Origin: Candidatus Omnitrophota bacterium
GTDB taxonomy: Bacteria > Omnitrophota > Gorgyraeia > Gygaellales > Profunditerraquicolaceae
Assembly (NCBI GenBank): GCA_018812825.1
Contig: JAHJCJ010000067.1
Location: forward strand, 383-64,382
DNA length: 64,000 nt
Direction of reading: 5' to 3'
Shown: positions 7,797 through 49,512 of the stretch, piece by piece
Layout of the letters: every line of letters begins with the position of its first letter
How positions within the stretch are numbered: the stretch's first letter is position 1
Program-made: the position numbers and the translations under genes
The notes under the pieces: generated by a model
The model's database searches: none
What the model was told of the DNA's origin: nothing
What the model saw: the letters and a program-made list of their open reading frames with translations, nothing else

Positions 7797-7797
7797 G

Positions 7798-7816: not shown

Positions 7817-7921
7817 TTAACTTCATATAGGTGTAATATAGGTAAAATATAATATAAACAAATGGCACCCCGCGCTAATTGGAATTGCGCGGGTGTTGTG
7901 TACGTACACAAGGAGGAAGAT

Positions 7922-8776: not shown

Positions 8777-8836
8777 AATGTTCCCCCTTCGCTAAGGCTC
8801 CGGGGGATTTCGCTAAATAAAAACATAAGGTGCTTA

Positions 8837-12043: not shown

Positions 12044-12059
12044 AAATCGGAGGTTTAAA

Positions 12060-12737
12060 ATGGAAAGACATTTAGATTTAGAGCTAAAAGAGTTAAACAA
12101 GGATATCTTAAAGATGGGGGCCTATGCGGAAGAGGCTATTTTCAAATCTGTTGAGGCTCTAAAGAATCGAGACAAAGATCTGGCTAAAAGTGTCATAGAT
12201 AATGATACCAATATTGATAAGCTGGAATTGACTGTAGATGAAAGGTGTATAGATTTGATAGCTCGTCATCAGCCGATGGCCAAAGATCTTCGCTTTATCA
12301 CAACCGGTATGAAGATAAATGCAGAGCTAGAAAGAATAGCTGATATTGCGGTGGATATTGCCCAGCGTACACTTGAGATAGTGGATAAGCCTCTTTTAAA
12401 ACCATTAATTGATATACCTAAGCTTGCAGCTGTTGCGCAAAACATGATAAAGATGTCCATAGATGCGTTCGTGAAAGGCGATATTGCATTAGCTAAAAAA
12501 GTCTTATCATCTGATTCTGAAGCTGATCAACTTCGCAATATTATACAAGAGGAGCTGGTTGAGGATTATATGGTCAAAGATGGTACTACTGCCCCTAGAG
12601 CGGTTCAGTTATTATTGATAGCTCGTTTCTTGGAACGTATATGTGACCATACTACTAATATTGCAGAAGATGTAATTTATATGGTGCAAGCAGAGGTTGT
12701 AAGGCATCATCCAGAGAGATTAAAGAATGGAAAATAA
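12060..12737 (+). CDS. phoU: Phosphate signalling complex protein PhoU
   Basis: Two PhoU repeats ('ERIADIAVDIA' and 'ERICDHTTNIAEDVIYMV'). Confidence 0.9.
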   Translation: MERHLDLELKELNKDILKMGAYAEEAIFKSVEALKNRDKDLAKSVIDNDTNIDKLELTVDERCIDLIARHQPMAKDLRFITTGMKINAELERIADIAVDIAQRTLEIVDKPLLKPLIDIPKLAAVAQNMIKMSIDAFVKGDIALAKKVLSSDSEADQLRNIIQEELVEDYMVKDGTTAPRAVQLLLIARFLERICDHTTNIAEDVIYMVQAEVVRHHPERLKNGK

Positions 12738-13422: not shown

Positions 13423-14169
13423 ATGGCATTACGGGAAGATATTGAAAAACAAGGCAGCTGGCTTTTTAGGTGGAGAAGTTATTTACCGCTTTTAAGTATT
13501 CCGGTTTTTACTATTGCTGTAAGACAGTCTGGAATATTGGAAAATAAATTCGGGGATTCTGTAGGTGATTTTTGGGGGGTTTGTGCAATTATAATATCAT
13601 TCTTTGGGTTTGTTGTTCGTTGCGTTACTGTGGGATTTGCTCCGCGCGGCACATCAGGTAGGAATACGAAGTCGCAAGTAGCAGAGATGCTTAATACAAC
13701 TGGCATGTATTCTATTTCAAGAAACCCACTCTACCTTGGTAATTTTATTATAGTTTTAGGTATTACATTATTTATCCAGGTGTGGTGGCTAGCTTTATTA
13801 GTTTGGCTTGGATTTTGGTTTTATTATGAACGGATTATTTTCACCGAAGAAGAGTTCTTGAGAAGTAAATTTAAGGATCAATTAATGGAATGGGCTAAAA
13901 AGACACCGATTGTAATCCCACGTTTTAGAAATTGGGAGAAACCGGAGTTAGGTTTTTCATTAAAGAATGTTTTTAAGAGGGAGTTTTCTACATTTTTTTC
14001 TATTGTTGCAACTTTCTTTTTCTTGGAAATTTTAACCAATTTTTTAACCCAAAAAAGATTTGCGGTTCATAATTCTTGGTTAATATTTTTTAGCGTAAGT
14101 CTTTTTATTTATTTAACTTTCTTCATTTTGAAAAAGAAAACAAAATTACTCAATGTTGTTGATAGATAA
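13423..14169 (+). CDS. Membrane methyltransferase of the ICMT/PEMT (isoprenylcysteine carboxyl methyltransferase-like) family
   Basis: Polytopic membrane protein with an 'ISRNPLYLGNFIIVLG' motif like the RHPxY/RNPxY motif of that family. Confidence 0.5.
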   Translation: MALREDIEKQGSWLFRWRSYLPLLSIPVFTIAVRQSGILENKFGDSVGDFWGVCAIIISFFGFVVRCVTVGFAPRGTSGRNTKSQVAEMLNTTGMYSISRNPLYLGNFIIVLGITLFIQVWWLALLVWLGFWFYYERIIFTEEEFLRSKFKDQLMEWAKKTPIVIPRFRNWEKPELGFSLKNVFKREFSTFFSIVATFFFLEILTNFLTQKRFAVHNSWLIFFSVSLFIYLTFFILKKKTKLLNVVDR

Positions 14170-14361
14170 ACCAACGGTGCTTATAGTAGTTTATGGGCGA
14201 AAGATTTTCTTACGGCCCCGTCCTCTTGGTTATCTTCAACCGGCTAGCTGTAAATTAATCAAGTTTTGATATATAGCTTAAGTTTCTCTGAATAAGTCAA
14301 AGTTCTGAGATTAACATAAGGGTGAGCATATAACTGCAATGTTTACAAAAATAGGCTGATT

Positions 14362-14664
14362 ATGTTTGTGCTATCTAATTTCTTATTCGCTATTGCCAGA
14401 GCATTGGATATCCTGCTTGGTATTTTATATTGGCTTATACTTATTAGGGCCTTAATCAGTTGGGTCAATCCTGACCCATATAATCCCATTGTGCAGTTTT
14501 TATACAAAACTACAGAACCCGTACTGTATTCGATTAGGAAACTCCTGCCTTTTACCCAGAGTATAGGCATAGATATTTCGCCTATAATAGCTTTCTTGGT
14601 GATTATGTTTTTTAAATCATTCCTGGTGAGGACGCTGTTGGATTTAGCAATGAGGATACAGTAG
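14362..14664 (+). CDS. yggT: YggT-family membrane protein
   Basis: 'LIRALISWVNPDPYNPIVQFLYKTTEPVLYSIRKLLP...IDISPIIA' is the YggT/Ycf19 signature. Confidence 0.75.
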   Translation: MFVLSNFLFAIARALDILLGILYWLILIRALISWVNPDPYNPIVQFLYKTTEPVLYSIRKLLPFTQSIGIDISPIIAFLVIMFFKSFLVRTLLDLAMRIQ

Positions 14665-14987
14665 ATAAACATCTGTTTTACAAAACCGCTGTGTTTTTAA
14701 CAACAATGCCTCATGCTATAATTATAATTGATACTTGTACAGATAGCTATAGAAGCAGTAGGTAATGCCGGAATAAGCAGCAGGTTTTATGACTACGGCT
14801 GATATAAAATGCAAGCCTATCGTGGTGTTTAAGGACAATAGTCTTTGCCAATCGGCTAACCTTAATAGGCCAATTCGAGCCATGAAATAAGAAAATATCT
14901 AAAGTTACTAAATTGTTAATTCGGCGTGCTTTAATGCTTTGAAATAGGAAATAAGCGTTATATAATAACCGCAGTAATGAGGTAATA

Positions 14988-16007
14988 ATGATTAATAGAG
15001 CGGTTTTTTTAGTATCCTTGCTCACGGTTTTGGTTTTATTTGTCCGTCTGGAGGCAGAAGAAGTAGGGATGCGGGTAGGATATTTTCCCAATATAACCCA
15101 TTCACAGGCCATCGTGGGTATGGCCAATGGAAGCTTCCAGAAAGAATTGGGAAGGGATGTAAAAATAGATGTCAAGATTTTTAACGCCGGTCCGTATGTG
15201 ATTGAGGCGATGTTTGCTGGCAAGCTTGACTTGGCATATATAGGGCCTAATCCTGCGATTAATGGTTATATAAAATCTAACGGGGAGGCATTAAGAATTG
15301 TTGCCGGAGCCAGTAGCGGCGGGGCAGCTTTAGTTGTGCGTAAAGATTCCGGTATAAAAGAAGTAAAAGATCTCCATAAAAAGAGAATAGCATCCCCCCA
15401 GTTAGGCAATACACAGGATGTATCCCTAAGGGCATGGCTTAAGCATAATGATATGCTTATGACAGAAAAAGGCGGGGATGTTCAGGTGGTGCCGGTAAGC
15501 AACCCCGATCAACTTATCTTATTCCTTAATAAACAGATAGACGCTGCTTGGACAATTGAACCTTGGGTGAGCCGTTTAGTAAAAGAAGGCACTGGAGTAA
15601 TATTTCTAGAAGAAAGTTCGCTTTGGCCCAAAGGCGAATATATCACGGCAAATATAATCGTGAGGAAAGGATTTTTGGATACGCACCCCGTCCTTGTCAA
15701 AAAATGGCTTAGGACGCATGTAAACTTAACACAGTGGGTTAACGAGCATCTTAGCGAGGCAAAAATAATTATAAATAAGGAACTTAAGAGATTAACCGGC
15801 GCAGCACTTAGTGAAGATATTTTGAATTCTTCTTTTGATAGGTTAAGAGTAACTTACAATCCGCTTAAGACTTCGCTTTTTACTTCCCTGGACTGGGCAT
15901 TCGAACAGGGATTTCTCGGAGAGAATAAGACTGATATTTCCGGAATATATGACATTAGAATTTTAAATGAAATATTAAAAGAAAAAGGATTAGTTCCTCT
16001 AGATTAA
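14988..16007 (+). CDS. ABC transporter substrate-binding protein, NitT/TauT (sulfonate/taurine/nitrate) family
   Basis: Signal peptide, 'GYFPNITHSQAIVG', and 'KLDLAYIGPNPAI' typical of SsuA/TauA-like SBPs; followed by a cognate ATPase and permease. Confidence 0.7.
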   Translation: MINRAVFLVSLLTVLVLFVRLEAEEVGMRVGYFPNITHSQAIVGMANGSFQKELGRDVKIDVKIFNAGPYVIEAMFAGKLDLAYIGPNPAINGYIKSNGEALRIVAGASSGGAALVVRKDSGIKEVKDLHKKRIASPQLGNTQDVSLRAWLKHNDMLMTEKGGDVQVVPVSNPDQLILFLNKQIDAAWTIEPWVSRLVKEGTGVIFLEESSLWPKGEYITANIIVRKGFLDTHPVLVKKWLRTHVNLTQWVNEHLSEAKIIINKELKRLTGAALSEDILNSSFDRLRVTYNPLKTSLFTSLDWAFEQGFLGENKTDISGIYDIRILNEILKEKGLVPLD

Positions 16008-16008
16008 G

Positions 16009-16773
16009 ATGTCCCTGCTTAGCATCAACATAGATTCGAAAGTATATAGCGGTAGTAAAAATACTTTAAAAGTATTAGAGGATATCCATCTTGAAATTGG
16101 AGAAGGAGAGCTTGTTTGTATTGCCGGGCCATCGGGATGCGGTAAAACAACTTTTTTAAATATTCTGGCGGGTTTAGATTCTGATTACTCTGGAAGAGTC
16201 CTCTATAAAGGTGCTCCTATAATTAAATGCAGCCAGGAGCGAATGATGATATTCCAGGAGCTGGGGTTATTTCCTTGGCTTAATGTTCAGAATAATGTAG
16301 AGTTTGGTTTGAAAATGAAAGGTATCCCTAAGAAAAAAAGAGAGCAGATTGCCTTGAAATACCTCGAGATGGTCAACCTCGTTAAATTTAAGGATTATTT
16401 TATCCATAATCTATCCGGAGGAATGAAGCAAAGAGTCGCCTTAGCTAGGGCATTAGCTATGGAGCCCCAGGTGCTTTTGATGGATGAGCCATTTGCTTCT
16501 TTGGATGCGCAGACAAGGGATATGTTACATCTTGAACTGCAAAAAATATGGATTGCTACCAAGAAAACAATAATCTTCGTTACCCATAATGTAAGAGAAG
16601 CAGTCTGTCTAGGTGATAGGGTGTTAGTTTTCTCGTTAGCGCCTGCACACGTAAAGGCGAGTTTTAAAATCGACCTTGCGCGCCCGCGGCAGATTGAAAG
16701 CGAAGGACTGATAGAAAAGGTCAGGCCCATACTTACTGAATTAAAATTTGAGATCGAAAGGGATTATGAATAA
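16009..16773 (+). CDS. ABC transporter ATP-binding protein (SsuB/TauB-like)
   Basis: Walker A 'GPSGCGKTT', signature 'LSGGMKQRVALARALA', Walker B 'LLMDEPFASLD'. Confidence 0.85.
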   Translation: MSLLSINIDSKVYSGSKNTLKVLEDIHLEIGEGELVCIAGPSGCGKTTFLNILAGLDSDYSGRVLYKGAPIIKCSQERMMIFQELGLFPWLNVQNNVEFGLKMKGIPKKKREQIALKYLEMVNLVKFKDYFIHNLSGGMKQRVALARALAMEPQVLLMDEPFASLDAQTRDMLHLELQKIWIATKKTIIFVTHNVREAVCLGDRVLVFSLAPAHVKASFKIDLARPRQIESEGLIEKVRPILTELKFEIERDYE

Positions 16774-17548
16774 TAGATTCTTGCAGTTAATGTTCAAACA
16801 GGTTATATTTTACTCGGCATTATTATTATTATGGCATTTTTTATTTTCCATAAAGATTTGGCCGGCGTATCTTTTCCCCTCTCCCTTAAAGGTATTAAAA
16901 GCAATTATTGAGGGATTTAGAAGCCATATTTTTATTATCGCCATATTGGTTAGTTTACGCAGGGCCTTGATTGGGTTCGGAATCTCTATTTTATGTGGAG
17001 CTGTTTTTGGTATTTTGATGAAAAAATTTAAAATCATTGATGATACATTCGGAAAACTGGTAATGGGCATTCAAGCATTGCCGAGCATCAGCTGGTTTCC
17101 GCTTGCGATTTTATGGTTTGGGTTAACCGAAACAACCATTATTTTTATTGCCGTTATGGGCTCGTTATTTTCTATTACTATGTCGGTATATTCCGGTTTA
17201 AAACACATCCCCAAGATTTACATTCAGACAGCAAGGAATATGGGTGCGCGTAGAATGAAAATGCTATGGTGGGTATTAATTCCTGCGGCAGCGCCGTCAT
17301 TGATCGTAGGGTTAAAGCAGGGATGGTCTTTTGCCTGGAGATCTCTTGTGGCAGGCGAACTTCTATTTGTAAGCCTTGGTTTGGGTTATCTTCTAATGAT
17401 GGGCAGAGAATTAAACGATATGAGCCAGATTATCGCCGCAATATTTATTATTATTTTAATAAGCGTTGCAGTAGATAGGTTCGTATTCGGAATTATGGAA
17501 GCAAGGCTTAAGAAAAGATGGGGTCTTGAAGGGGCAGAAGCCCTTTAA
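16748..17548 (+). CDS. ABC transporter permease (SsuC/TauC-like)
   Basis: Six TM segments and the conserved loop 'ARNMGARRMKMLWWVLIPAAAPS'. Confidence 0.8.
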   Translation: MRSKGIMNNRFLQLMFKQVIFYSALLLLWHFLFSIKIWPAYLFPSPLKVLKAIIEGFRSHIFIIAILVSLRRALIGFGISILCGAVFGILMKKFKIIDDTFGKLVMGIQALPSISWFPLAILWFGLTETTIIFIAVMGSLFSITMSVYSGLKHIPKIYIQTARNMGARRMKMLWWVLIPAAAPSLIVGLKQGWSFAWRSLVAGELLFVSLGLGYLLMMGRELNDMSQIIAAIFIIILISVAVDRFVFGIMEARLKKRWGLEGAEAL

Positions 17549-17690
17549 TGACTTGTTACCCTATTTATATCTTCGCAGCTAAAAATCTTGCTTTTCAATA
17601 CAGGGATGGATAATGGTCGTCTAAATATCCCGTCCGGGTGACCCCCCTGGGCTTTAGTCCGGGTGGTTGTATTTCTAATTTTATATATAA

Positions 17691-18716
17691 ATGGAACCAA
17701 TTTTTATCATAGGCACAGAACGTTCCGGTACAAACTTACTCAGGGTCATTCTTAATTCTCACTCTAATATCGCCATTCCACATCCCCCGCACATAATGAA
17801 GAATTTTTTTAAGCTAGAGCCGCTCTATTTTAATTTGAGCAGGGATATTAATTTTCAGAGGCTCATTAATGATGTGGTCAAAATGGTTGAACTTCATTTT
17901 TATCCTTGGGAGATTAAAATTGATAAAGATAGAATATTCCGAGAGGTAAAAGGAAGGAACTTAATTAGTATCTTCTTTAGCATTTACGACCAATACCTGG
18001 AGAGCACAAAGAAGAAGAGATGGGGCTGTAAAAGTACCTTTATGATTTATCATGTTGCTTTAATCAGGCAATATTACCCCTTAGCTAAATTTATTTACAT
18101 GGTGCGCGATGGAAGAGACGTCGCTGTATCTGGCAAGAAAACCATCTTTAATCATTATTCTGTTTATTATACGGCGCTATTATGGAAGAAGGAGCAGGAG
18201 ATCGGGATTTTTTGGCTGGGCAAGCTCCCGAAAGACAGGATCCTTTTAATTAAATATGAAGATCTTTTGAGTGAGCCGGATAAAATGGCTAGGATAGCCT
18301 GTTCTTTTTTAGATGAACCATACCAGGAGAATATGCTCAATTATTTTAGTACCAATGAAGCTAAAAAAAGCGCAAGCCTAAGCGCAGCCTGGAAAAATAC
18401 CTCTGCCTCAATAATAATAGACAATTTTGGGAAATTTAAAACTGAATTAAAAAAGAAAGAAATTGATTTATTCGAAGCCGTGTCCGGCCAAGAACTGGAT
18501 TATTTTTCGTATAAACTATCAAAAGATTTTTCTCTTTCAGAGGGTGCCCGGGCAAAGAGGATAAAGTTCAGGTTCGCTTATTTAATTGAGGAGTTATTTT
18601 TAATGATTAAAGTGCAATTACAATCTTTCTTTACAGATAAAAACATCTTCTTAAGGCTTAAGAAATTTTGGTTTTTAAAACTCATTAAAATCTTAAGGTA
18701 TTTTCAATGGAATTAG
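17691..18716 (+). CDS. Cytoplasmic PAPS-dependent sulfotransferase
   Basis: 5'-PSB-like 'FIIGTERSGTNLL' and 3'-PB-like 'YMVRDGRDVAVSG' motifs of the sulfotransferase fold; no signal peptide. Confidence 0.7.
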   Translation: MEPIFIIGTERSGTNLLRVILNSHSNIAIPHPPHIMKNFFKLEPLYFNLSRDINFQRLINDVVKMVELHFYPWEIKIDKDRIFREVKGRNLISIFFSIYDQYLESTKKKRWGCKSTFMIYHVALIRQYYPLAKFIYMVRDGRDVAVSGKKTIFNHYSVYYTALLWKKEQEIGIFWLGKLPKDRILLIKYEDLLSEPDKMARIACSFLDEPYQENMLNYFSTNEAKKSASLSAAWKNTSASIIIDNFGKFKTELKKKEIDLFEAVSGQELDYFSYKLSKDFSLSEGARAKRIKFRFAYLIEELFLMIKVQLQSFFTDKNIFLRLKKFWFLKLIKILRYFQWN

Positions 18717-20113
18717 ATTGCAAATTACAGTCTGCCTATATTGACCGAGTTAATGATTTTAGAAATCATGTTTTCGAGGAAATAAATAAAAAAGATCAAT
18801 ATCGCCTTTGGTCTGTCAAAACCCTGCGTAATGTAAAGGAGGCTATTGTTATCAGCTCTGCTTCTAGGTCAGGCTCGAGCCTCTTATTTTCATTACTAAA
18901 GAAGGTTCCTCAGCTTTACTCTTTAAGCGGGGAGAGTGTGCCTTTTTATAAATTAAACGGCCTATCTTCGGATATCTTTCCTTCAGATGAGATCCCTAAG
19001 GAAGTTATGGAAAAAAGAAAATATACCTTTGGTCTTTCCCGTGATTTTTTAAGTGATTTTTCTTCAGGTGGTGACCCCGGAGATATCTTCAGGGATAGAA
19101 AACTGTTTAGCCAGTATATCGAAGATCTTACATTGAGATTTCCATTACAATGGCCCCAGGTAAACTTTTCCTTCGGGTTTTTAAAAAAATCAATAATGCG
19201 AGCATTTGATATCTATGCGAACAACCATCAAATATTTTGCAAAGAAACATTTTATCTTGAGCTGCTTTCGCAGTTGCGGAGGGAATATAAAACCATAAAT
19301 CCTTATTATTATGATATTCCCGTCACGTTGGTTAAGAGGAAATTTCCCGGGTTAAAAATTCCATTAGCCCCACCGAGCCGCATCCTGACAATTGAAGAGC
19401 CACCCTTTATTTTATTATCACCTTGCAGAAAAATCGATGAGATGGACCTTTTAGGAAAGTCTCTGCTTTTGAAATCTTCGGCAGATTGCTATCGAATGGG
19501 TTTTATCAAAGCACTCTTGCCCAATGCCAGGATTAAGATAATTTATTTGACCAGGAATCCCGCTGCTTCGATTAATGGTTTATATGACGGCTGGCTTCAT
19601 AGGGGATTTTTTTCTCATAATTTGAAATGTTCCTTGGCTAATGCGAATAATTCCTTGTCAAAGAGCCTGAATATACGCGGATATTCAGGCCGGCATGAAT
19701 GGGGGAGATGGTGGTGGAAATATGATTTGCCTTTTGGATGGCTAGATTACACGCAAAGCCCGCTTGAAGAAGTATGCGCCTTTCAATGGGTTTCCGCAAA
19801 CAGGGCACTGCAGGAATATTTGAATAAAAGTAAAAAACAATATTTACAGGTTAAGCATGAAAACATCATTAAAAACTTAGAATCACGAAAGAAAGAGATA
19901 AATAAAATCCTGAGTTTTATCGGTATTCGCCGAAGCGCGGTAAATCAATTGAATTTAAGCAGATTGCCTGTTATCCAGGCCACAAGCGCGCCTAAGGCCT
20001 ATAGATGGAAAAAAAGAATAAACATACTTGCTCCGCTTATCAGTAATCCTGTAATAGCCAATATGAGTTTTCAGCTGGGATATAAAAGAGATAGAATCGA
20101 GGAGTGGTTATGA
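18707..20113 (+). CDS. Second sulfotransferase-family protein (divergent)
   Basis: 'VISSASRSGSSLLFSLLKK' P-loop-like PAPS-binding motif and 'IIYLTRNPAASINGLYDGW' 3'-PB-like motif; its start overlaps the stop of the previous gene. Confidence 0.5.
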   Translation: MELDCKLQSAYIDRVNDFRNHVFEEINKKDQYRLWSVKTLRNVKEAIVISSASRSGSSLLFSLLKKVPQLYSLSGESVPFYKLNGLSSDIFPSDEIPKEVMEKRKYTFGLSRDFLSDFSSGGDPGDIFRDRKLFSQYIEDLTLRFPLQWPQVNFSFGFLKKSIMRAFDIYANNHQIFCKETFYLELLSQLRREYKTINPYYYDIPVTLVKRKFPGLKIPLAPPSRILTIEEPPFILLSPCRKIDEMDLLGKSLLLKSSADCYRMGFIKALLPNARIKIIYLTRNPAASINGLYDGWLHRGFFSHNLKCSLANANNSLSKSLNIRGYSGRHEWGRWWWKYDLPFGWLDYTQSPLEEVCAFQWVSANRALQEYLNKSKKQYLQVKHENIIKNLESRKKEINKILSFIGIRRSAVNQLNLSRLPVIQATSAPKAYRWKKRINILAPLISNPVIANMSFQLGYKRDRIEEWL

Positions 20114-21039
20114 TGTTTGCGCATACTATCGGTTCGGAATATAAGCCATTAAAGGCAGTATTGCTCTATAAACCTGGCCCTTTTATTGAGAATATTGATA
20201 TTCCTCGGGAGGTTCTGCATCTGGGAAGTATTAGTTATTCGGTTTTAACAAGAGAATATGCAGAGATGGTCAATGCCTATAAGAAGCTCAAGATAAAGAC
20301 TTATTTTATAAATGCTGATAAAATAAGTAATGATGATAACCACGGTTTGTTTAATCTTATGTTCATAAGGGACCTTTTTCTTATGACTCCTTCTGGGGCA
20401 ATTATTTCTAGAATGTTTTCAAAAGTTAGGCGAGCGGAAGAGGGGTACGCAAAAATGACCCTAAGCGGTATGGGTGTGCGAATAAGGAGAATTGTTCGGG
20501 CTGGCGCAACATTTGAAGGAGCTGATGCTTTATGGCTTCGTGATAGATTGATGATGGTGGGGGTGGGTAAACGAACAAATATTAATGGTTTTCGTGAGAT
20601 CAAGGAAGAGTTAAAGAAAGATAACATTGAATGTTTAAGCTTTCCTGCTCCGCAGGCTACGCTTCATCTTCTGGGTGCGTTGCAATTTGTTGATTCGGCG
20701 CTTGCCCTGGTTAGGGTGGATCTAGTGGATGTAGGTATTTTAAATTTCTTGAAACAAAATAAAATAAAAATAATAAGTATACCCGAAAATGCAGAAGTAA
20801 GGAAAAAGCAGGCAATGAATTTTGTAGTAATAGCTCCGAGGAAAATAGTTATGCCGGCGGATTGCCCCAAAACACGCAGAATATATGAACGTTTTGGTAT
20901 TAAAATTGCCGCTGAAGTTAAAATCACTCAACTTGTTAACGGCGGCGGTGGCCTTGCCTGTGCAACTGGTATTTTGACGAGGAAGCCAGAGGCAACGCAT
21001 TCCTGGCACCCAAACATCAATAATAAAATTAGTAAATAA
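20104..21039 (+). CDS. Amidinotransferase/DDAH/arginine-deiminase-superfamily enzyme (guanidino-group modifying)
   Basis: C-terminal 'NGGGGLACATGILTRKP' with a catalytic-Cys context typical of the amidinotransferase superfamily; ~310 aa. Confidence 0.55.
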   Translation: MVMMFAHTIGSEYKPLKAVLLYKPGPFIENIDIPREVLHLGSISYSVLTREYAEMVNAYKKLKIKTYFINADKISNDDNHGLFNLMFIRDLFLMTPSGAIISRMFSKVRRAEEGYAKMTLSGMGVRIRRIVRAGATFEGADALWLRDRLMMVGVGKRTNINGFREIKEELKKDNIECLSFPAPQATLHLLGALQFVDSALALVRVDLVDVGILNFLKQNKIKIISIPENAEVRKKQAMNFVVIAPRKIVMPADCPKTRRIYERFGIKIAAEVKITQLVNGGGGLACATGILTRKPEATHSWHPNINNKISK

Positions 21040-21116
21040 CCTAAATATATGATAAAATATTTTCAAATTGCCCCTTCGGTTTATTAATCCCTATTCTTTA
21101 AGATTCAAAGGAGGAG

Positions 21117-22043
21117 ATGGGTATGTATAATGGCCACAAAAGATATGCCTTATTTATCGGCAGATGGCAACCGTTTCATAATGGGCATAAATATTTGATC
21201 GATGAGGCATTGTCAAAGGGTGAAAATGTTTGCATAGCGATAAGGGATACAGAAAACTCAGCCAAGAATCCTTATACCGCTGAACAAAGAGTCGAAATGA
21301 TTAAAAGAGTTTACGGAGACAGGGTGGAAGTAGCTATTATGCCTGATATCAAGAGTATAAATATAGGCAGAAATGTGGGTTACGAGGTTAATATCGTTGA
21401 ACCCCCCGCTAACGTAGGGAGTATTTCCGGAACAAACGTACGTGCGGGCAAAGATGATAATGTCCCTGTGGAAGTGGCAGAGTATATAAAATTATTGCGC
21501 ACCACTTTGTGGCTTACAGGAATTCCCTGCTCAGGGAAGACCACCTTATCTAAGAGACTGAAAGAGGAATTAGATAATCGCGGATTTAAGGCAGTCCATC
21601 TGGACGCAGATGATTTGCGGAATAAATTGAATGTGGATTTGGGATTTTCTGCTGAAGACAGGAGAGAAAATTTACGGCGCGTAGCCCATGTAGCTAAGTT
21701 ATTCAACGATAATGGCAATTTTGTAATTGCTAGTTTTGTTTCTCCGACTGATGAATACCGCAATATGGTAAAGGAAATTATCGGTAATTTTAAATTGGCT
21801 TATCTGAAATGCAGCCTTAAGATCTGTGAAGGAAGAGACGTTAAGGGAATGTATAAAAAGGCTAGAAGCGGCGAGATTAAAGAATTTACAGGCGTCTCTG
21901 CGGTTTTCGAAGAACCATCTAATGCCGACATTATCGTTGACACCGAGAATTACGGGATAGAGGAATGTGTAAATGGAATATTGAATAGGATCGGTGTTCA
22001 GTCGGTGACAAAGCATAATTTGCATTTGTGTAGCAAAAAATAA
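21117..22043 (+). CDS. cysC: Fusion: NadM-like HIGH-motif nucleotidyltransferase domain (N) + adenylylsulfate (APS) kinase domain (C)
   Basis: N-terminal 'YALFIGRWQPFHNGHKYLIDEAL' (cytidylyl/adenylyltransferase HxGH fold, archaeal NMNAT-like); C-terminal 'LWLTGIPCSGKTTLSKRL...HLDADDLRNKLNVDLGFSAEDRRENLRRVAHVAKLF' (APS kinase P-loop and 'DGD..R..L..DLGFS..DR.EN.RR' motif). Confidence 0.75.
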   Translation: MGMYNGHKRYALFIGRWQPFHNGHKYLIDEALSKGENVCIAIRDTENSAKNPYTAEQRVEMIKRVYGDRVEVAIMPDIKSINIGRNVGYEVNIVEPPANVGSISGTNVRAGKDDNVPVEVAEYIKLLRTTLWLTGIPCSGKTTLSKRLKEELDNRGFKAVHLDADDLRNKLNVDLGFSAEDRRENLRRVAHVAKLFNDNGNFVIASFVSPTDEYRNMVKEIIGNFKLAYLKCSLKICEGRDVKGMYKKARSGEIKEFTGVSAVFEEPSNADIIVDTENYGIEECVNGILNRIGVQSVTKHNLHLCSKK

Positions 22044-22047
22044 CATA

Positions 22048-22821
22048 ATGGGTTGTGAAAATATAAACAAGGTATTGAGCCCGGAGCATAAACTTAAAAA
22101 ACAGTTTGATTTGCGTTGTGCTGAATTCGATCTCTCTGCTAACTGGATTACGAATAAAGAACTTATCCGTAGCCACATAGATTTAGCAGGTCCGTCTTGC
22201 GGCAGGGCATTAGACTTGTGCTGTGGTACTGGTCAAATTGGCCGCGCTTTAAAAAGTCAGGGTTGGGATGTTTACGGCTTGGATATTTCTGATGGCATGG
22301 CCAGGATGTCGTCGCGGTATTTCCCGGTCTCAAAATGCGCAGCCGAAAGAATGCCTTTTTCCTCCCATTATTTTCATCTGGTAGTGTGTCGTCAGACATT
22401 TCAATTTTTAAATGCCCAAAAAGTTTTATCTGAGGTGGCAAGGGTTTTAGCTCCTCAGGGGGTTTTTATTTTAAGCCTTACTGTACCGTTTTCCGATAAG
22501 GATTATGACTGGCTATATAAGATTCACCGGGTAAAACAGCCTTTGCTTTTAAAGTTTTACACGGCCCTGAATTTGATGGATGAATTGCGAAGAAAAAATT
22601 TCTTAATCGAAGAAACAAGGATTCTAAAAGTACGAGAATCAGTTACGCGTTGGATGCAGCATGCCCCGGAGTTGAATCACAAAATACGGGATAAAGTCAT
22701 CTTAATGGTAAAAAACGCGCCCGCAGATTACAAAAAGATTCATAATGTAGAAATAACGGGTAAAGAAGTGTTGGAAGACTGGAATTGGGTTATTTTTAAA
22801 GCAAGTTTTCGTAAAAACTAA
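22048..22821 (+). CDS. Class I SAM-dependent methyltransferase (copy 1)
   Basis: Motif I 'ALDLCCGTGQIGRAL' and 'VVCRQTFQFL...RVLAPQGVF'; paralog of the ORF at 24254. Confidence 0.8.
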   Translation: MGCENINKVLSPEHKLKKQFDLRCAEFDLSANWITNKELIRSHIDLAGPSCGRALDLCCGTGQIGRALKSQGWDVYGLDISDGMARMSSRYFPVSKCAAERMPFSSHYFHLVVCRQTFQFLNAQKVLSEVARVLAPQGVFILSLTVPFSDKDYDWLYKIHRVKQPLLLKFYTALNLMDELRRKNFLIEETRILKVRESVTRWMQHAPELNHKIRDKVILMVKNAPADYKKIHNVEITGKEVLEDWNWVIFKASFRKN

Positions 22822-22851
22822 GGTTTATACGTAGGTTACTAGAAAACATAT

Positions 22852-24297
22852 ATGGATAAATTGCCCGGATGCCACTATAATTATTCTCCTGAAGTAGACC
22901 CCCAAGAGGATGTTCTGCGAAAAATAGCTTATTCAAAATATCCGCGTAGGAACACCGGAAGAGTTGTTCTTATTGTGCCTCCTTCCCCGCAGATTCCCAC
23001 GCCAGGCAGGGAGTTTTTAGTAACAGGCCCTTTCGAAGGCTTTACTTGCGTAGCAACTTTAATTAAAAAAATGGGGTATGCATTAACGATCATTGATTGT
23101 CGCCTGAAAGAAGGCATTGATAGGCTTGTATTGGATGGCATAAAAGATGCAGAGATTATCGGGATAGCCACCTATTGTGATTCTTTTATTTTTCTGCGGG
23201 AAATTACCCAATTGATAAAAGAGGTTTCTCCAAAAAAACCGATATTTTTGGGTGGTCCCCTTGTTACTTCTTTACCCGAGATTGTGCTTAAAAATACTGC
23301 TGCTGACTATGCAATTTTGGGAGAAGGAGAGCTTACAATTATTGAATTTCTTGATATGTACTTCAGTAAGAGGAAAACCGACTTTACGAATATAAAGGGA
23401 ATGGCTTATAAGGATAGTAAGGGCCGGATAATAATTAATCCAAAGAGGGCACAGATTAAAAATCTCGATAATCTGCCTTTTTTGGATTATTCTATTTGGT
23501 CCAATTATGAAAGTATTGTTAGGAATGGCCAAATATTGCTCTCATCAATGAGAGGTTGTCCCCAAGAATGCTCCTTTTGTTTTAAAACCATTCCTGCCCT
23601 TAGATTAAAAAGTCTTGGAAGGTTTGAAGAAGAAGTAGCCTATCTTAAGCAGGCGACAAGATTTGACTATGCTTGGTTGAATGATTTGACGTTTAATGTT
23701 ATTGAAGAGAGGGCGATCAAGGTATGCAGAATTTTAAAAACATATGATGTCAAGTATCATTGTTTTGCGCGTGTGCAAAAAGTAAGTGCGGCATTGGTAA
23801 AGACATTGGAAGAAACAGGATGCTTGGGGGTATGGTTTGGCATAGAGTCTTATGACCAGAAAATCCTTGATGAGAACAGAAAGAATGTCAGCATTGAAGA
23901 AATAAATAAGGCTGTTAAAATTGCTCAAGAGGCTGGGCTGGCCGTAAGAGGGCTTTTTATTGTCGGTTTGTATGGAGAAACAGAGGGTTCTTTAAAAAAG
24001 ATGCTGGATTTTATTACAGAGAGCAGATTCTTGCCTTTAGTCAAATATCTTGTTCCCTTTCCGGGAACAAGTTTATACCAATATGCAGTCCACTCCGGAA
24101 AAATAAAAGACACCATTGAATTTCTGGAGATGCTTTCTAGAAGAAAAGTAAGCGATTATGATGATGAGATAATTAACCTTACGGGCTTAAAGGAAGAAAC
24201 CCTGAGATATTATTTTCATCGAATATGGAAAATAACTAAGGAAAGAGAGGATTGTGTTGATTACCAGTGTACTCTTAGCACGCGTAAGCCCGGTTAA
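22852..24297 (+). CDS. B12-binding radical SAM enzyme (copy 1)
   Basis: N-terminal B12-binding-like domain then the CxxxCxxC cluster 'MRGCPQECSFC'; ~480 aa, typical of class B radical SAM enzymes. Confidence 0.8.
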   Translation: MDKLPGCHYNYSPEVDPQEDVLRKIAYSKYPRRNTGRVVLIVPPSPQIPTPGREFLVTGPFEGFTCVATLIKKMGYALTIIDCRLKEGIDRLVLDGIKDAEIIGIATYCDSFIFLREITQLIKEVSPKKPIFLGGPLVTSLPEIVLKNTAADYAILGEGELTIIEFLDMYFSKRKTDFTNIKGMAYKDSKGRIIINPKRAQIKNLDNLPFLDYSIWSNYESIVRNGQILLSSMRGCPQECSFCFKTIPALRLKSLGRFEEEVAYLKQATRFDYAWLNDLTFNVIEERAIKVCRILKTYDVKYHCFARVQKVSAALVKTLEETGCLGVWFGIESYDQKILDENRKNVSIEEINKAVKIAQEAGLAVRGLFIVGLYGETEGSLKKMLDFITESRFLPLVKYLVPFPGTSLYQYAVHSGKIKDTIEFLEMLSRRKVSDYDDEIINLTGLKEETLRYYFHRIWKITKEREDCVDYQCTLSTRKPG

Positions 24298-25030
24298 CCA
24301 TTTCCAAAAAAGGGCAGAGAAGTATGATTGCTCATCTGAATGGGTGCATGATCCAGTTCTCATTAATAAGATAAAAGATCTGGTTGGGGCAGGTCCTGAT
24401 GAGTATCTGCTTGATATAGGTGTGGGAACAGGAAAAATCAGCCGTGCGTTCAAAGGAGAGGTTAGCTGTCTTTTTGGAGTGGACATATGTATGGGGATGG
24501 TTAAGCAGGCCAGGTTGTTTACCGACAAAATTATATTATCTTATGCAGAAAAATTGCCGTTTAAGGATAATATCTTTGATGTTTGTGTTTGCCGGCAGGC
24601 ATTACAGTTTATGAGACTTGAAGAGGTATGTTCTGAAATGCACAGGGTTTTAAAACCTGGCGGCCGTTTGGTATTGTGTCATTTAACCGCATATGGCGAG
24701 GGAGACAAAAAAGAAACCTTTTTAATTCAGAAGTTGCGTAATCCTGCACGTAAGAATTTTTTCTTACCGGGAGATTTTCCTGAGATGCTCAAGAAATATA
24801 AGTTTTCCGATCTAAAATCTTTCGCATACATTACAAGAGAGTCGGTTAATCAATGGATTAACCATGGCGCCATCTGTGAAGATGATAGAGTAAAGATCAG
24901 GGAAGCTTATAGAAAGGCATCGGGTGATTTCAAAAGAATACATAAGATACAATTCAGTGATACGGACATTTTTGACTCAATGAAGATGGTTCTTGTAAGG
25001 GCTATAAAGAAAAAAAGCCGGTTAGATTGA
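24254..25030 (+). CDS. Class I SAM-dependent methyltransferase (copy 2)
   Basis: Motif I 'LLDIGVGTGKISRAF', 'VCVCRQALQFM...RVLKPGGRL'; clearly paralogous to 22048; exact start uncertain (the track start is a TTG overlapping the upstream gene). Confidence 0.75.
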   Translation: MLITSVLLARVSPVNHFQKRAEKYDCSSEWVHDPVLINKIKDLVGAGPDEYLLDIGVGTGKISRAFKGEVSCLFGVDICMGMVKQARLFTDKIILSYAEKLPFKDNIFDVCVCRQALQFMRLEEVCSEMHRVLKPGGRLVLCHLTAYGEGDKKETFLIQKLRNPARKNFFLPGDFPEMLKKYKFSDLKSFAYITRESVNQWINHGAICEDDRVKIREAYRKASGDFKRIHKIQFSDTDIFDSMKMVLVRAIKKKSRLD

Positions 25031-25060
25031 ATAAGGCAATAGAGAGCACTATCCAAGTAT

Positions 25061-26497
25061 ATGAATAATATAACCCTGGTTAATATTACCATTGCCAAGA
25101 ATTTTAATGAAAAGGTGGTTTATAAGCATAATTCAGTGGGGATTTTCTTACTTATCGCCGTACTGGAGAGGTCAGGTTATAAGGTAAGTTTTTATGAATA
25201 TTGCATGGAGTATAAAAGAAAACTTACTGAGGAAATCAATGAATTTATTAATACCATAGATACGGTACCTCCCATGGTAGGTATCGGGTGTCATTCTGTG
25301 CATCTTCCCTTTGTGGTTAAGGCCGCAGAAGAGCTCAAAAAAAGATTCCCCGGTAAAGTTATCATCTTGGGAGGCGCAGGCCCGTCAGCTGTAGCAGAAG
25401 ATTTGTTGAAAAAATTCGATTTTATAGACGCAGTCGTAGTCGGCGAGGGTGAAGAAACTATCGTTGAAATTGCAAAGAAAGGTTTAAGTGAGTTTAGGGA
25501 GATAAAAGGCATAGTTTACAGGGAAGCTGATAAGGTGCATGTAAATAGCCCACGGCCGCATATAGATGAATTGGACAAGCTTCCGCTCCCGGCGTATCAT
25601 GCCGTAAACTTTAAAGAACAATACCAAATCGCAACTGTGATTACTTCTCGCGGTTGTCCTTTTCATTGCAAGTTCTGCAGTTTGACGGATTTTGACGGGA
25701 AAAAGGTCCGCTATAATTCCATTGATAATGTAATTCATGAATTAAGAATTCTATCTGTTGAGTATGGTTTTAAAGATTTATTTTTTGTTGACCCTACATT
25801 TACGGTTAATAAAAAACGGACGATAGAGTTATGCCGCAGGATCCGGGAAGAAAATTTAGGCTTGAGTTGGTTTTGTATGACGCGCGTGGAGTGTATGGAT
25901 GAAGAATTATTGGAGGAGATGGGGAGAAGCGGGTGCAAAACTATTTTTTATGGCTTAGATACAGGTAGTGAAGAGGTGCTTAAGAAAATTAAAAGAGGTT
26001 TTGGCATAAAAGATGCCCTGAATATTATTGAGAAATCTGTACGATATATTAATATGGTTGAAATAGGCCTTATGTGGGGCTTCCCTTTTGAATCGCTTAA
26101 TGATTTCAAAGAAACTTTAAGGATCCGTACATATCTTGAGGAGGAGTTGGGTTGTAACGTACAATTGCGCTGGTTAGAGCCGTATCCAGCGACATCGCTT
26201 TTTCAAGAGTATAAAAAAGATTTATTCCTGCCTAAAAGCCAAAGTCTTATGTTCCAGCCGGAAACAATAGAAAAACTTATCATTTCAGGAAAGAATTTTT
26301 ACCGCGCCTCCGGGGATACATGTCGCATACCTGCCGATGTAACCAGTATACGTTTCATCATAGCCGCCTCCCATACCGCAAATATATGCCGTGATATTAT
26401 TGAAGAAAACCCATATCTTTTTAGCGACTTTTACCGTTACAAAACCTTCGATTTAGAAGAAAAACTTAAGCTCGCCAGCCGTTACAGTATTTATTAA
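25061..26497 (+). CDS. B12-binding radical SAM enzyme (copy 2)
   Basis: 'TSRGCPFHCKFCS' CxxxCxxC motif with a preceding B12-binding-type domain ('VIILGGAGPSA'); paralog of 22852. Confidence 0.8.
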   Translation: MNNITLVNITIAKNFNEKVVYKHNSVGIFLLIAVLERSGYKVSFYEYCMEYKRKLTEEINEFINTIDTVPPMVGIGCHSVHLPFVVKAAEELKKRFPGKVIILGGAGPSAVAEDLLKKFDFIDAVVVGEGEETIVEIAKKGLSEFREIKGIVYREADKVHVNSPRPHIDELDKLPLPAYHAVNFKEQYQIATVITSRGCPFHCKFCSLTDFDGKKVRYNSIDNVIHELRILSVEYGFKDLFFVDPTFTVNKKRTIELCRRIREENLGLSWFCMTRVECMDEELLEEMGRSGCKTIFYGLDTGSEEVLKKIKRGFGIKDALNIIEKSVRYINMVEIGLMWGFPFESLNDFKETLRIRTYLEEELGCNVQLRWLEPYPATSLFQEYKKDLFLPKSQSLMFQPETIEKLIISGKNFYRASGDTCRIPADVTSIRFIIAASHTANICRDIIEENPYLFSDFYRYKTFDLEEKLKLASRYSIY

Positions 26498-26712
26498 GTT
26501 TTTGTTTAACCTAAATTTTGTTGAGATTTATATTGCGGATGATTTATTTGCAATGGCCGCGGAAGTATAAGTTTGAATGCGTAACGCGGGCACTATTTGG
26601 TTTGGAATTGCGGCAAAACTGTTATATAATAATAAATAATACTTTTCTTTTGAGTTATCAATGAGTTTTATTTGCTAGCCCGTATAGAGCGGGTAAATCA
26701 AGGAGGCAGATA

Positions 26713-27639
26713 ATGGGCAATGAGGATATCTATAAATTAGTTGCAAACATAGAAAAAGTTATTGTAGGCAAAACCGAAACAGTAAAAATGCTGGTTATAG
26801 GGTTATTGACTAATGGCCATATTTTGATAGAAGATATCCCCGGCATGGGAAAGACAATGCTTGCATTAACGTTAGCTAAATCTATAAGTGGAGAGTTTAA
26901 GAGGATACAGGCTACTCCGGATTTGCTACCCACAGATATTACTGGTGGGTTTGTTTATAGCCCCAAGACAGGAGAGTTTGATTTTAAAAAAGGTCCGGTG
27001 TTTACGCATATCCTTCTGGTTGACGAAATTAACAGGACTACGCCGCGTACGCAATCTGCTCTTCTTGAGTGTATGCAGGAGTATAAAGTTACCGTTGAAG
27101 GAATGACATTTGCCTTGCCAAATCCTTTTATGACCGTTGCTACACAGAATCCTATTGAATATCAGGGGACATACGCTTTACCTGAAGCCCAAATAGATAG
27201 GTTTTTGATGAAAATCAACATAGGGTATCCGTCTCTGGTAGAAGAAATAAAGGTTATTTCTGAACAAAAGATTAAACATCCAGTAGAAAGCGTTATGCCG
27301 GTTATGACTCTCGAGGATGTTGTGAAGCTTCAGGAACAGGTAAAAAAAGTTCAAGTTTCTTCAGAGGTATTGGAATACATCGTTAAATTGGTATCCTCAA
27401 CCCGCAAGTCAGATGTAGTAAAACAGGGCGCAAGCCCGCGTGCATCGATTGCCATCATGAAAGCAAGCTGTGCCTGGGCATTCATCGAGGGTAGGGATTA
27501 TGTTATACCCGATGATGTTATTAAGCTCCTGCCACGTGTCTTGAAGCATAGGATCGTATTGCATCCAAAGGCCATGATTTCCGGAATGACGCCTGAATTG
27601 GTTGTAGAAGGCATATTGAAACAAATCCCAATTTCCTGA
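26713..27639 (+). CDS. MoxR-family AAA+ ATPase
   Basis: Walker A 'GMGKTM', Walker B 'LLVDEINRTTPRTQSALLECMQE', and the 'VTVEG..F.LP.PF.V.ATQNP' signature of MoxR/RavA. Confidence 0.85.
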   Translation: MGNEDIYKLVANIEKVIVGKTETVKMLVIGLLTNGHILIEDIPGMGKTMLALTLAKSISGEFKRIQATPDLLPTDITGGFVYSPKTGEFDFKKGPVFTHILLVDEINRTTPRTQSALLECMQEYKVTVEGMTFALPNPFMTVATQNPIEYQGTYALPEAQIDRFLMKINIGYPSLVEEIKVISEQKIKHPVESVMPVMTLEDVVKLQEQVKKVQVSSEVLEYIVKLVSSTRKSDVVKQGASPRASIAIMKASCAWAFIEGRDYVIPDDVIKLLPRVLKHRIVLHPKAMISGMTPELVVEGILKQIPIS

Positions 27640-27646
27640 TTTAAGC

Positions 27647-28873: not shown

Positions 28874-28881
28874 TGTAGGCT

Positions 28882-31581: not shown

Positions 31582-31586
31582 GCAAA

Positions 31587-47911: not shown

Positions 47912-47921
47912 AAGGAGAAAA

Positions 47922-49511: not shown

Positions 49512-49512
49512 A

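Follow-up and report, generated by a model that had tools for sequence, protein, structure and literature searches.

A conserved gene cassette pairing two sulfotransferases with a guanidino-group enzyme and a methylation module in an Omnitrophota genome: a candidate for sulfated specialised metabolism

What is made, if anything is made jointly, by a row of genes whose enzyme families are familiar one by one and whose combination is not? This question is raised by positions 14988-26497 of a 64,000-nucleotide stretch of DNA from a Candidatus Omnitrophota bacterium (contig JAHJCJ010000067.1; the whole stretch is hereafter called the window), in which eleven co-directional open reading frames (ORFs) of the + strand (protein accessions MBU0547945-57) follow each other at successive intergenic distances of 1, -26, 142, -10, -10, 77, 4, 30, -44 and 30 bp. 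A preliminary description had listed for these tightly packed or overlapping genes an ATP-binding cassette (ABC) importer of the NitT/TauT family, two sulfotransferases (ST1 and ST2) dependent on 3'-phosphoadenosine 5'-phosphosulfate (PAPS), a guanidino-group-modifying enzyme (GME), a fusion of a nucleotidyltransferase (NT) domain with an adenosine 5'-phosphosulfate (APS) kinase, two class I S-adenosylmethionine (SAM) methyltransferases (MT1 and MT2) and two B12-binding radical SAM enzymes (rSAM1 and rSAM2), and an ORF check together with Pfam and NCBIfam searches confirmed the expected domains throughout. We propose, with a probability of roughly 0.45, that the region is a specialised-metabolite cassette for a small amino-acid-derived, methylated and sulfated molecule, equipped with its own PAPS supply and with lineage-specific additions. 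The enzyme families of the cassette are known, their combination is undescribed and widely conserved, and one of its domains is possibly a new sulfate-activating one; literature searches yielded no description of it, in keeping with the earlier failure to match it to a pathway, and returned work on saxitoxin, cylindrospermopsin, ascamycin and phaseolotoxin as loose analogues.

The proposal is carried above all by the conservation of the core. The same partners were already present around three homologs of ST2, the signature gene of the cassette, found in an Elusimicrobia metagenome-assembled genome (MAG), in a contig with proteins bearing type IX secretion system (T9SS) tails and in an unrelated MAG, and a profile scan with ST2, limited to one genome per species, gave 114 relatives, from which 80 loci were retained. 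Partners were counted in the 57 of these 80 loci that offer at least 3 kb on both sides of ST2, and the 11 window proteins were mapped onto the loci. GME lies near ST2 in 50 of the 57, ST1 in 42, a methyltransferase in 37, a B12-binding radical SAM enzyme in 32, an APS kinase domain in 14, the NT domain in 7, an ABC permease in 2 and a binding protein in 1; ST1 is directly upstream of ST2 in 46/80 loci and GME directly downstream in 47/80. The conserved cassette thus reads ST1-ST2-GME-(APS kinase)-MT1-rSAM-rSAM-MT2. It is compact and self-contained in many genomes and patchily distributed across phyla, the 80 loci bearing at least ten phylum-level labels (taken from record titles, those of MAGs being in part unreliable). 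The same gene order was seen in the isolate Geobacter sp. OR-1 and under the labels Omnitrophota, Planctomycetes, Elusimicrobia, Nitrospirae, Bacteroidales, Clostridiales, Gemmatimonadota, Myxococcota and actinomycetes; the set as a whole also bears the labels Geobacterales, Pseudomonadota, Wallbacteria and cyanobacteria and includes many actinomycetes. Synteny of the core in dozens of genomes that are not related puts the arrangement beyond chance, and the clustering that the preliminary description had staked on conserved linkage in relatives is borne out for the core.

The same counts bear on whether the window genes form one pathway at all. The transporter, which had been taken as part of the cluster, accompanies the cassette in 1-2 of the 57 loci and is a lineage-specific accessory, not a conserved member; its one binding-protein homolog (46% identity) is in the Clostridiales locus L047. 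In a Clostridiales genome the distance between the cassette and a transporter of this family is 3 kb, and an APS kinase gene comes after the transporter. It is conceivable, though in our judgement quite improbable, that the region is a juxtaposition in which a system that takes up sulfonates or sulfate esters to be assimilated as sulfur has come to lie beside a PAPS-forming enzyme and independent methylation enzymes. Besides the rare linkage of the transporter, a 142-bp gap precedes ST1, rSAM2 comes from independent methyltransferase/radical SAM arrays, one of them (L092) placed after a NitT/TauT transporter, and the NT-APS kinase fusion also occurs alone and in other clusters. However, ST1-ST2-GME and MT1-rSAM_A-MT2 (rSAM_A being the orthologous group of rSAM1) stay in each other's company from phylum to phylum and have reading frames that overlap, the Clostridiales genome again brings transporter, cassette and APS kinase close to each other, and sulfotransferases consume activated sulfate, which makes them ill-suited to assimilation.

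Both sulfotransferases were described beforehand as cytoplasmic and PAPS-type, and this assignment holds, as each shows the sulfotransferase fold with PAPS motifs and lacks signal or transmembrane segments. ST1 passes the Pfam gathering cut-offs in the Sulfotransfer_1/3 test (108.3 bits against a cut-off of 27 and 55.3 bits against 22), and its 5'-PSB motif 'GTERSGT' and 3'-PB motif 'VRDGRDVAVS' both align with those of tyrosylprotein sulfotransferase (TPST); its matches among solved structures include TPST1 (4e-10) and the sulfotransferase domain of CurM (2e-8). In the more divergent ST2, which also has the sulfotransferase fold, six PAPS-motif residues (R54, G56, S57, S58, R283 and P285) do not vary over 26 sequences, and a seventh, N284, hardly does. 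ST1 and ST2 share no detectable pairwise similarity and neither has a match in NCBIfam, and both belong, by sequence, to the PAPS-dependent sulfotransferase superfamily, with sulfate transfer as the predicted activity. The sulfotransferase domains of the activating CurM/OLS systems are structurally near ST1 and ST2. There, sulfate serves transiently as a leaving group, and the final product need not carry it. Unlike these domains, in whose group aziridine-forming sulfation is also found, ST1 and ST2 are free-standing and lack a thioesterase or polyketide synthase (PKS), and the sulfate ester is likely persistent here since the cassette is accompanied by secreted sulfatases in relatives (see below).

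The enzyme encoded directly after ST2 was expected to be an amidinotransferase or an enzyme of dimethylarginine dimethylaminohydrolase (DDAH) fold. Its membership of the guanidino-modifying superfamily stands, while its role as an amidinotransferase of the AGAT (glycine amidinotransferase), StrB1, SxtG or CyrA type was ruled out by a family profile built from 19 sequences, to which the hydrolase branches are far closer: the profile matches Pseudomonas DDAH (PaDDAH) at 5.8e-21, a streptococcal arginine deiminase (ADI) at 6e-21, arginine dihydrolase at ~1e-9 and AGAT at 2.2e-4. N84, R89, D90, R109, E138, D141, R157, H188 and C286 are invariant in the aligned family members, and D90, R109, E138, R157, H188 and C286 align with D66, R85, E114, R132, H162 and C249 of PaDDAH, which we take, from DDAH/ADI structures, to be the catalytic set plus the two arginines that clamp the substrate alpha-carboxylate. 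The NCBIfam matches are exclusively to DDAH, ADI or arginine dihydrolase models and none reaches its cut-off, the equivalog scores being 54.6 bits for DDAH (cut-off 340) and 52 bits for ArcA (cut-off 489). GME is thus classed by sequence in the DDAH/arginine-deiminase hydrolase branch of the superfamily and, because it lies under every equivalog cut-off, as a new branch that is neither DDAH nor ADI proper. Because the carboxylate-clamping arginines and the catalytic set are invariant, its substrate would be a free L-arginine-type amino acid and its chemistry hydrolytic.

This placement also changes how the nearest known systems compare. The saxitoxin (SxtG/SxtN/SxtO) and cylindrospermopsin (CyrA/CyrJ/CyrN) pathways start from arginine and combine an amidinotransferase of the GME superfamily with a PAPS sulfotransferase and with an APS kinase encoded in the cluster, and the resemblance that had been seen to them proves superficial because GME is nearer to the DDAH/ADI hydrolases than to amidinotransferases, its profile being ~1e17-fold closer to DDAH and ADI. 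The scaffold enzymes of those pathways are absent from the annotated window genes. In contrast to them, the cassette lacks a PKS-like scaffold enzyme, contains two unrelated sulfotransferases, two methyltransferases and B12-binding radical SAM enzymes, and has mostly non-cyanobacterial hosts. The phaseolotoxin Pht cluster (AmtA, PhtA, PhtS, ArgK) encodes tyrosine-sulfotransferase-like, APS-kinase-like and GME-superfamily proteins; its product is N-sulfated and an antimetabolite of the ornithine/arginine pathway, and the cluster includes a copy of the target enzyme that is resistant (PMC5453526). This target-copy logic resembles that of a GyrB fragment found in one clade of cassettes (see below). 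However, AmtA is an amidinotransferase, the ATP-grasp ligases, desaturase and other genes of Pht are not in the cassette and Pht has no B12-binding radical SAM enzyme, the likeness being one of gene content.

The methylation genes had been read as two copies of one module, a methyltransferase plus a B12-binding radical SAM enzyme, which the comparisons contradict: MT1 and MT2 are 28% identical, rSAM1 and rSAM2 24%, and by sequence both pairs are old paralogs of distinct orthologous groups. Orthologs of MT1 are 44-70% identical across phyla, those of MT2 49-62% and those of rSAM1, the best-conserved enzyme of the module, 60-78%. The assignment of rSAM1 and rSAM2 as B12-binding radical SAM enzymes with a CxxxCxxC motif is upheld, both having the class B makeup of an N-terminal B12-binding domain and a radical SAM core, and neither passes any NCBIfam equivalog cut-off, including those of HpnJ, ApyD, PhpK and BchE. 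MT1 and MT2 likewise have no NCBIfam match above cut-off and, among solved structures, match generic class I methyltransferases alone. The order in relatives is MT1-rSAM_B-rSAM_A-MT2, and that in the window is MT1-rSAM_A-MT2-rSAM2, without rSAM_B and with rSAM2 standing where relatives have no gene. rSAM2 was considered as an ortholog of the second cassette radical SAM enzyme and rejected, being 24-28% identical to any of those in the cassettes; its orthologs (59-62% identity, metagenome contigs) are in methyltransferase/radical SAM arrays without sulfotransferase or GME. The window cluster therefore looks like a conserved cassette set between a transporter and a radical SAM gene of another recurrent local module. 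One of these arrays, in L092, comes immediately after a DUF2490 gene and a NitT/TauT ABC transporter that has two binding proteins, and it lies among GT4, Wzy and GT2 genes, with no sulfotransferase there; in L094 the rSAM2 ortholog is likewise part of a dense radical SAM/methyltransferase array. The adjacency of a class I methyltransferase and a class B radical SAM methylase recalls CysS of cystobactamid biosynthesis, and the solved relatives of rSAM1 include TokK and CysS, both distant (E 1e-8 to 1e-9). In the CysS-type logic a methyltransferase installs a methyl group that the radical SAM enzyme extends, and the cassette possibly shares it. In contrast to CysS, the cassette has no nonribosomal peptide synthetase (NRPS) context, and the function of its enzymes can only be proposed by analogy.

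Enzymes of these classes could also modify a ribosomal peptide or protein, by tyrosine sulfation (ST1), C-methylation (the B12-binding radical SAM enzymes) and arginine deimination (GME). Tyrosylprotein sulfotransferases are indeed among the nearest solved relatives of ST1 and ST2, and the best NCBIfam matches of rSAM2 are methylases of ribosomally synthesised and post-translationally modified peptides (ApyD, 183 bits, and rSAM_ocin_1), with the glutamine C-methyltransferase model for methyl-coenzyme M reductase (MCR) also matching, all far under their cut-offs. We nevertheless consider this reading very unlikely. No candidate precursor ORF is present in or beside the window cluster (a result for the window, as the other loci were not scanned for ORFs below 90 aa), the sole small ORF nearby (100 aa) being a YggT-type membrane protein as judged by eye; the gaps within the cluster are too short for a gene; nothing in the cassette genes was recognised as a protease or a leader-recognition domain, small ORFs not having been systematically compared across loci; and the carboxylate-binding arginines of GME suit a free amino acid.

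In Geobacter, Nitrospirae, Elusimicrobia and many Omnitrophota, extra genes precede or follow the cassette. An orthologous sulfatase (41-58% identical) occurs in ~20 loci, often in 2-3 copies, a 660-678-aa phosphodiesterase-family protein in 8 distinct loci, and a Lactamase_B_2 protein of metallo-β-lactamase (MBL) fold and sometimes a formylglycine-generating enzyme (FGE) are also linked; the sulfatases, phosphodiesterase-family and Lactamase_B_2 proteins that were examined bear signal or Tat peptides. In another explanation, which we find unlikely without dismissing it, the cassette would sulfate and methylate a cell-surface polymer or glycolipid and not a small molecule, and the secreted sulfatases would remodel that polymer. 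A Streptomyces locus (L057) groups ST2 and GME with Melibiase-like glycoside hydrolase, GT2 and MFS genes, an Elusimicrobia locus (L001) has a GT2-sulfatase fusion together with phosphodiesterase-family proteins, L087 has genes of PMT_2 and UbiA type on the upstream side, rSAM2 orthologs are found among the glycan genes already mentioned, and the NT-APS kinase fusion serves clearly glycan-type clusters elsewhere. On the other hand, a glycosyltransferase is absent from the window cluster and from most cassette loci, UbiA and PMT_2 were rejected as conserved neighbours since they are confined to L087 and L088, the cassette is self-contained in many genomes, and GME keeps residues for binding a free alpha-amino-acid carboxylate that would be useless to a glycan pathway.

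A second clade of 14 loci, with Clostridiales, Elusimicrobia, Gemmatimonadota, Pseudomonadota, Desulfobacteraceae, Streptomyces, Micromonospora and Verrucosispora among its labels, adds a different kind of evidence. In these loci the MT1-type methyltransferase is fused to an N-terminal fragment corresponding to the GyrB 43K ATPase (HATPase_c + DNA_gyraseB, 150-175 bits), which matches authentic GyrB ATPase fragments at E ~1e-101 and retains the motifs EVVDN, DDGRGIP, GxHGVG and QTK intact. The fusion family is large, its best 120 matches being 54-82% identical and including many cultured actinomycetes. In this clade one radical SAM gene is followed by that of a ~150-aa protein with a weak rubrerythrin/ferritin-like signal, which precedes the fusion in the examined Streptomyces and Desulfobacteraceae loci; its homologs occur in 14 loci, essentially those with the GyrB fragment, and no counterpart was detected in the window. 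The Streptomyces sp. NBC_00820 set, for instance, comprises a NovG/StrR-like regulator, a radical SAM enzyme, ST1, MT2, the 150-aa protein, the GyrB43-methyltransferase fusion, ST2, an APS kinase and a divergent sulfatase. The patchy spread across phyla, this regulator and the fusion in 14 loci all back a specialised-metabolite character. A near-authentic fragment of a target within a biosynthetic-looking operon may, as a lead only, be the mark of a target-directed compound or of an immunity device. Beside two clade-2 cassettes lie aminoacyl-tRNA synthetase genes (a class I LysRS and a tRNA-synt_1b enzyme), which could be extra resistant copies or a coincidence. An anti-phage defence system was also considered for the cassette and rejected, as PADLOC gives generic methyltransferase and radical SAM domain similarity alone and nothing specific to the signature proteins.

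PAPS for the two sulfotransferases would be supplied by the NT-APS kinase fusion. The APS kinase domain scores 193.5 bits with TIGR00455 (cut-off 138.7), as claimed for the cluster beforehand, matches the kinase domain of human PAPSS1 at E 1e-40 and keeps P-loop, LDxDxxR and DLGFSxxDRxENxRR motifs that are invariant in 15 homologs; by sequence it is a canonical APS kinase (CysC). The NT domain carries an HxGH motif ('FHNGH') and an ISGTxxR motif ('ISGTNVR'). A search with this domain of 1.84 billion representatives gave 399 relatives at E <=1e-10, the best 150 of which (P0379-P0528) comprise 54 proteins of APSK-NT architecture, 21 of NT-APSK, 58 of NT alone and 17 of other architecture, among them one weak NT-DHHA1 protein; DHHA1 is the family of 3'-phosphoadenosine 5'-phosphate (pAp) phosphatases. 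The occurrence of both fusion orders is strong comparative evidence that the NT domain works with APS kinase. The NT-APSK fusion is 70-91% identical over many contigs, mostly Omnitrophota where labelled, a conservation far above that of the sulfotransferase and GME proteins, and its settings are of three kinds, namely the cassette (L087), a solitary position (L089) and the vicinity of unrelated sulfotransferases in two glycan-type clusters (L096 and L097), which would suit a general PAPS supplier. Across the cassettes an APS kinase is a recurrent member, both as a fusion and as a separate protein. The solitary fusion of L089, on a contig labelled Woesearchaeota (DPANN archaea), is 73% identical to the window protein and could reflect recent transfer or mis-binning. 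In three Omnitrophota loci (L015, L017 and L043) a stand-alone APS kinase-like gene (37-38% identity) lies just before ST1, and in L015 and L043 the NT-APS kinase fusion is also present after GME, giving two APS kinase homologs per cluster; the L017 contig stops before that position. Bifunctional PAPS synthases (human PAPSS, Aquifex Sat-CysC) likewise join a canonical APS kinase to a HUP-superfamily nucleotidyltransferase with HxGH, in both domain orders as do the NT/APSK fusions, with the difference that the partner domain has ~120 residues here and ~380 there. The simplest role for the NT domain would be to form APS as an unrecognised minimal ATP sulfurylase, a hypothesis whose chances we rate at somewhat short of even.

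Taken together, these data suggest the following course of events, for which the domains, motifs, folds, conserved synteny and fusion patterns are observed and the substrate class, the order of steps, the role of the NT domain and export with desulfation are deduced. The core genes ST1-ST2-GME and MT1-rSAM1-MT2 would form a cytoplasmic unit, inherited and transferred jointly over many phyla, that assembles or modifies a small specialised metabolite derived from an amino acid. GME would bind a free amino acid of the L-arginine type and hydrolyse its guanidino group by DDAH/ADI-type chemistry and not by amidino transfer. In a possible order of steps, the two class I methyltransferases would then methylate heteroatoms and the B12-binding radical SAM enzymes unactivated carbons, possibly extending methyl groups installed by the methyltransferases as CysS does, and ST1 and ST2 would each move sulfate from PAPS, made locally by the fusion protein, whose NMNAT-like domain probably forms APS from ATP and sulfate. 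The SsuA-type importer and rSAM2 would be lineage-specific additions, a sulfonate or sulfate ester taken up by the importer perhaps serving as precursor or as source of sulfur. The linked secreted sulfatases and the GyrB-methyltransferase fusion of clade 2 suggest that the sulfated compound is exported and desulfated extracellularly, and that it may act on the gyrase ATPase. With respect to the product, the earlier guess of a lipid head group has no support, and a small amino-acid-derived molecule is better supported, though not proven. A bolder version, which we regard as a long shot, would have the NT domain be a third, minimal class of ATP sulfurylase (with APS kinase, a 300-residue PAPS synthase widespread in uncultured bacteria and present also on the DPANN-labelled contig) and the cassette make a new arginine-derived, C-methylated antibiotic that is silenced by sulfation in the cell, activated by secreted sulfatases and targeted at the GyrB ATPase, which would explain the fusion of a GyrB fragment to a methyltransferase in clade 2.

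Several observations weigh against the proposed cassette function. The cassette contains no scaffold-forming enzyme (PKS, NRPS or ATP-grasp) and no hydroxylase that would create an obvious O-acceptor for sulfation, and glycan genes flank some of its versions (L057, L001). GME is missing in the Elusimicrobia loci L001/L002 and in Streptomyces sp. NBC_00820, so the arginine link is not universal. None of the sulfatase, phosphodiesterase, MBL and FGE partners was found in the window by tblastn, and the clade to which the window belongs has no GyrB domain. The 142-bp gap before ST1 holds a weak terminator-like hairpin, and the transporter of the window may be a separate transcription unit. As for PAPS supply, a structural model of the NT domain (pLDDT 74) is nearest in fold to an archaeal NMN adenylyltransferase (TM-score 0.72), ATP sulfurylases matching the model over a ~70-residue core only; Pfam searches for ATP sulfurylase (Sat/CysD) features in the domain gave no ATP-sulfurylase or PUA_2 match and CTP_transf_like alone; and the sulfurylase motif GRDHAG was not found on reading its sequence. 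A canonical ATP sulfurylase was not seen among the annotated window ORFs, the unsearched ones of 180-270 aa including 1487-2077, 39926-40594, 42617-43249, 56290-56844, 57228-57857, 60286-61083 and 62118-62981.

Ten or more phylum-level labels are represented among the carriers of the seven-enzyme set, to which culturable Geobacter, Streptomyces and relatives of Micromonospora belong, and its signature proteins have no NCBIfam model; this wide recurrence with neither model nor description points to an unrecognised, widely shared secondary metabolism of sulfur and arginine. Because cultured carriers exist, among them Streptomyces sp. NBC_00820 (CP108882.1, ~6.199-6.221 Mb; L090), Geobacter sp. 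OR-1 (NZ_BAZF01000005.1; L030) and Verrucosispora sp. TAA-831 (L081), the function of the cassette is testable. The GyrB ATPase fragment fused to a methyltransferase is a classic pointer to a possible gyrase-directed compound. The NT domain, if a true ATP sulfurylase, would constitute an overlooked route to activated sulfate and change the sulfation capacity inferred from uncultured genomes.

Coordinates of the features in the window and in the related loci (prefix L) are collected in Table 1.

Table 1. Position of genes, domains and linked regions in the window and in relatives.
Feature	Position	Strand	Evidence or remark
Substrate-binding protein (SBP), NitT/TauT (SsuA-type) ABC importer	14988..16007	+	NMT1_2 9e-35; TIGR01728 SsuA_fam 226.7 bits (cut-off 163.5)
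ABC transporter ATPase	16009..16773	+	ABC_tran 2.5e-32
ABC transporter permease	16748..17548	+	BPD_transp_1 4.5e-22; seven hydrophobic segments
ST1, cytoplasmic PAPS-type sulfotransferase	17691..18716	+	Sulfotransfer_3 8.5e-31, Sulfotransfer_1 8.4e-15
ST2, divergent 460-aa sulfotransferase, signature gene	18707..20113	+	weak Sulfotransfer_3 signal
GME, predicted DDAH/arginine-deiminase-type guanidino-group hydrolase	20104..21039	+	ADI 2.9e-16, DDAH matches; start overlaps ST2 end by 10 nt
NMNAT-like NT-APS kinase fusion	21117..22043	+	CTP_transf_like 6.8e-13, APS_kinase 1.3e-53
NT domain of the fusion	21117 to ~21491	+	residues 1 to ~125
APS kinase domain of the fusion		+	residues ~129-297
MT1, class I SAM methyltransferase, orthologous group 1	22048..22821	+	Methyltransf_11 2e-17
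rSAM1, B12-binding radical SAM, group rSAM_A	22852..24297	+	B12-binding + Radical_SAM, CPQECSFC
MT2, class I SAM methyltransferase, orthologous group 2	24254..25030	+	Methyltransf_11 1.9e-20
rSAM2, B12-binding radical SAM, other lineage	25061..26497	+	B12-binding 1e-15, Radical_SAM 2.8e-23, CPFHCKFC
Small ORF near the cluster	14362-14664		100 aa
Upstream flank, phosphate regulon	4462-12737
Downstream flank, BatA/aerotolerance-like	26713-33746
Ankyrin-repeat protein	41041-42324		427 aa; Ank_2 8e-57
Tad/Flp pilus genes	47000-51672 and 61271-62116
Secretin with C-terminal TonB_C domain	47922-49511
ParA/MinD-like ATPase joined to T2SSE ATPase	49513-51672		719 aa
Secreted-hydrolase-linked regions	L030:12323-18273 and 20343-21119; L087:2517-6438; L001:11410-19299
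GyrB-methyltransferase fusions	L047:6909-8885, L048:6982-8955, L050:6846-8846, L054:6809-8815, L060:7897-9894, L073:3989-6091, L076:7876-9897, L081:7335-9899, L090:10001-11980, L091:2062-4077
~150-aa protein before the fusion	L090:9550-10008, L091:1622-2065
Aminoacyl-tRNA synthetase genes	L081:17846-19519, L091:8369-9334	-
Stand-alone APS kinase-like gene	~8420-8940 in L015 and L043; 5518-6000 in L017
NT-APS kinase fusion after GME	12317-14716 in L015, L043
NT-APS kinase alone (Woesearchaeota label)	L089:2192-3070
rSAM2-ortholog array	L092:4120-11440

The N-terminus of SBP is hydrophobic and forms a signal or anchor segment, and by its TIGR01728 score the protein belongs to the SsuA family of aliphatic sulfonate ABC binding proteins, from which its ligand is predicted; the nearest NCBIfam models of the ATPase are SaoA and the taurine ATPases, both under cut-off. 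GME differs from the otherwise segment-free sulfotransferase, methyltransferase and radical SAM proteins in having one weakly hydrophobic stretch. Searches of Rfam, at the gathering threshold for the window as a whole and with matches up to E 1 admitted for 14000-27000, gave no element in the region, riboswitches included, and promoter-like and terminator-like sites are no more numerous than in shuffled sequence, which makes that scan uninformative.

The flanks of the cluster are unrelated operons. Upstream lies a complete phosphate-regulon block (phoB-like regulator, phoR-like kinase, DUF2490, pstS, pstC, pstA, two pstB and phoU), whose adjacency to the cluster is not kept in relatives, together with a PEMT/ICMT-type methyltransferase and the YggT-like ORF. 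Downstream, the genes of a MoxR ATPase and a DUF58 protein are joined by those of a TgpA_N-like protein of 899 aa and a further protein of 719 aa, the last two with weak Big_2 matches, and all four form a BatA/aerotolerance-like operon. Further along the window, a protein made up mostly of ankyrin repeats, which is unusual in a bacterium, fits the host-associated lifestyles proposed for some Omnitrophota, and among the Tad/Flp pilus genes there are two odd fusions, a secretin with a TonB_C domain at its C-terminus and a ParA/MinD-like ATPase joined to a T2SSE ATPase.

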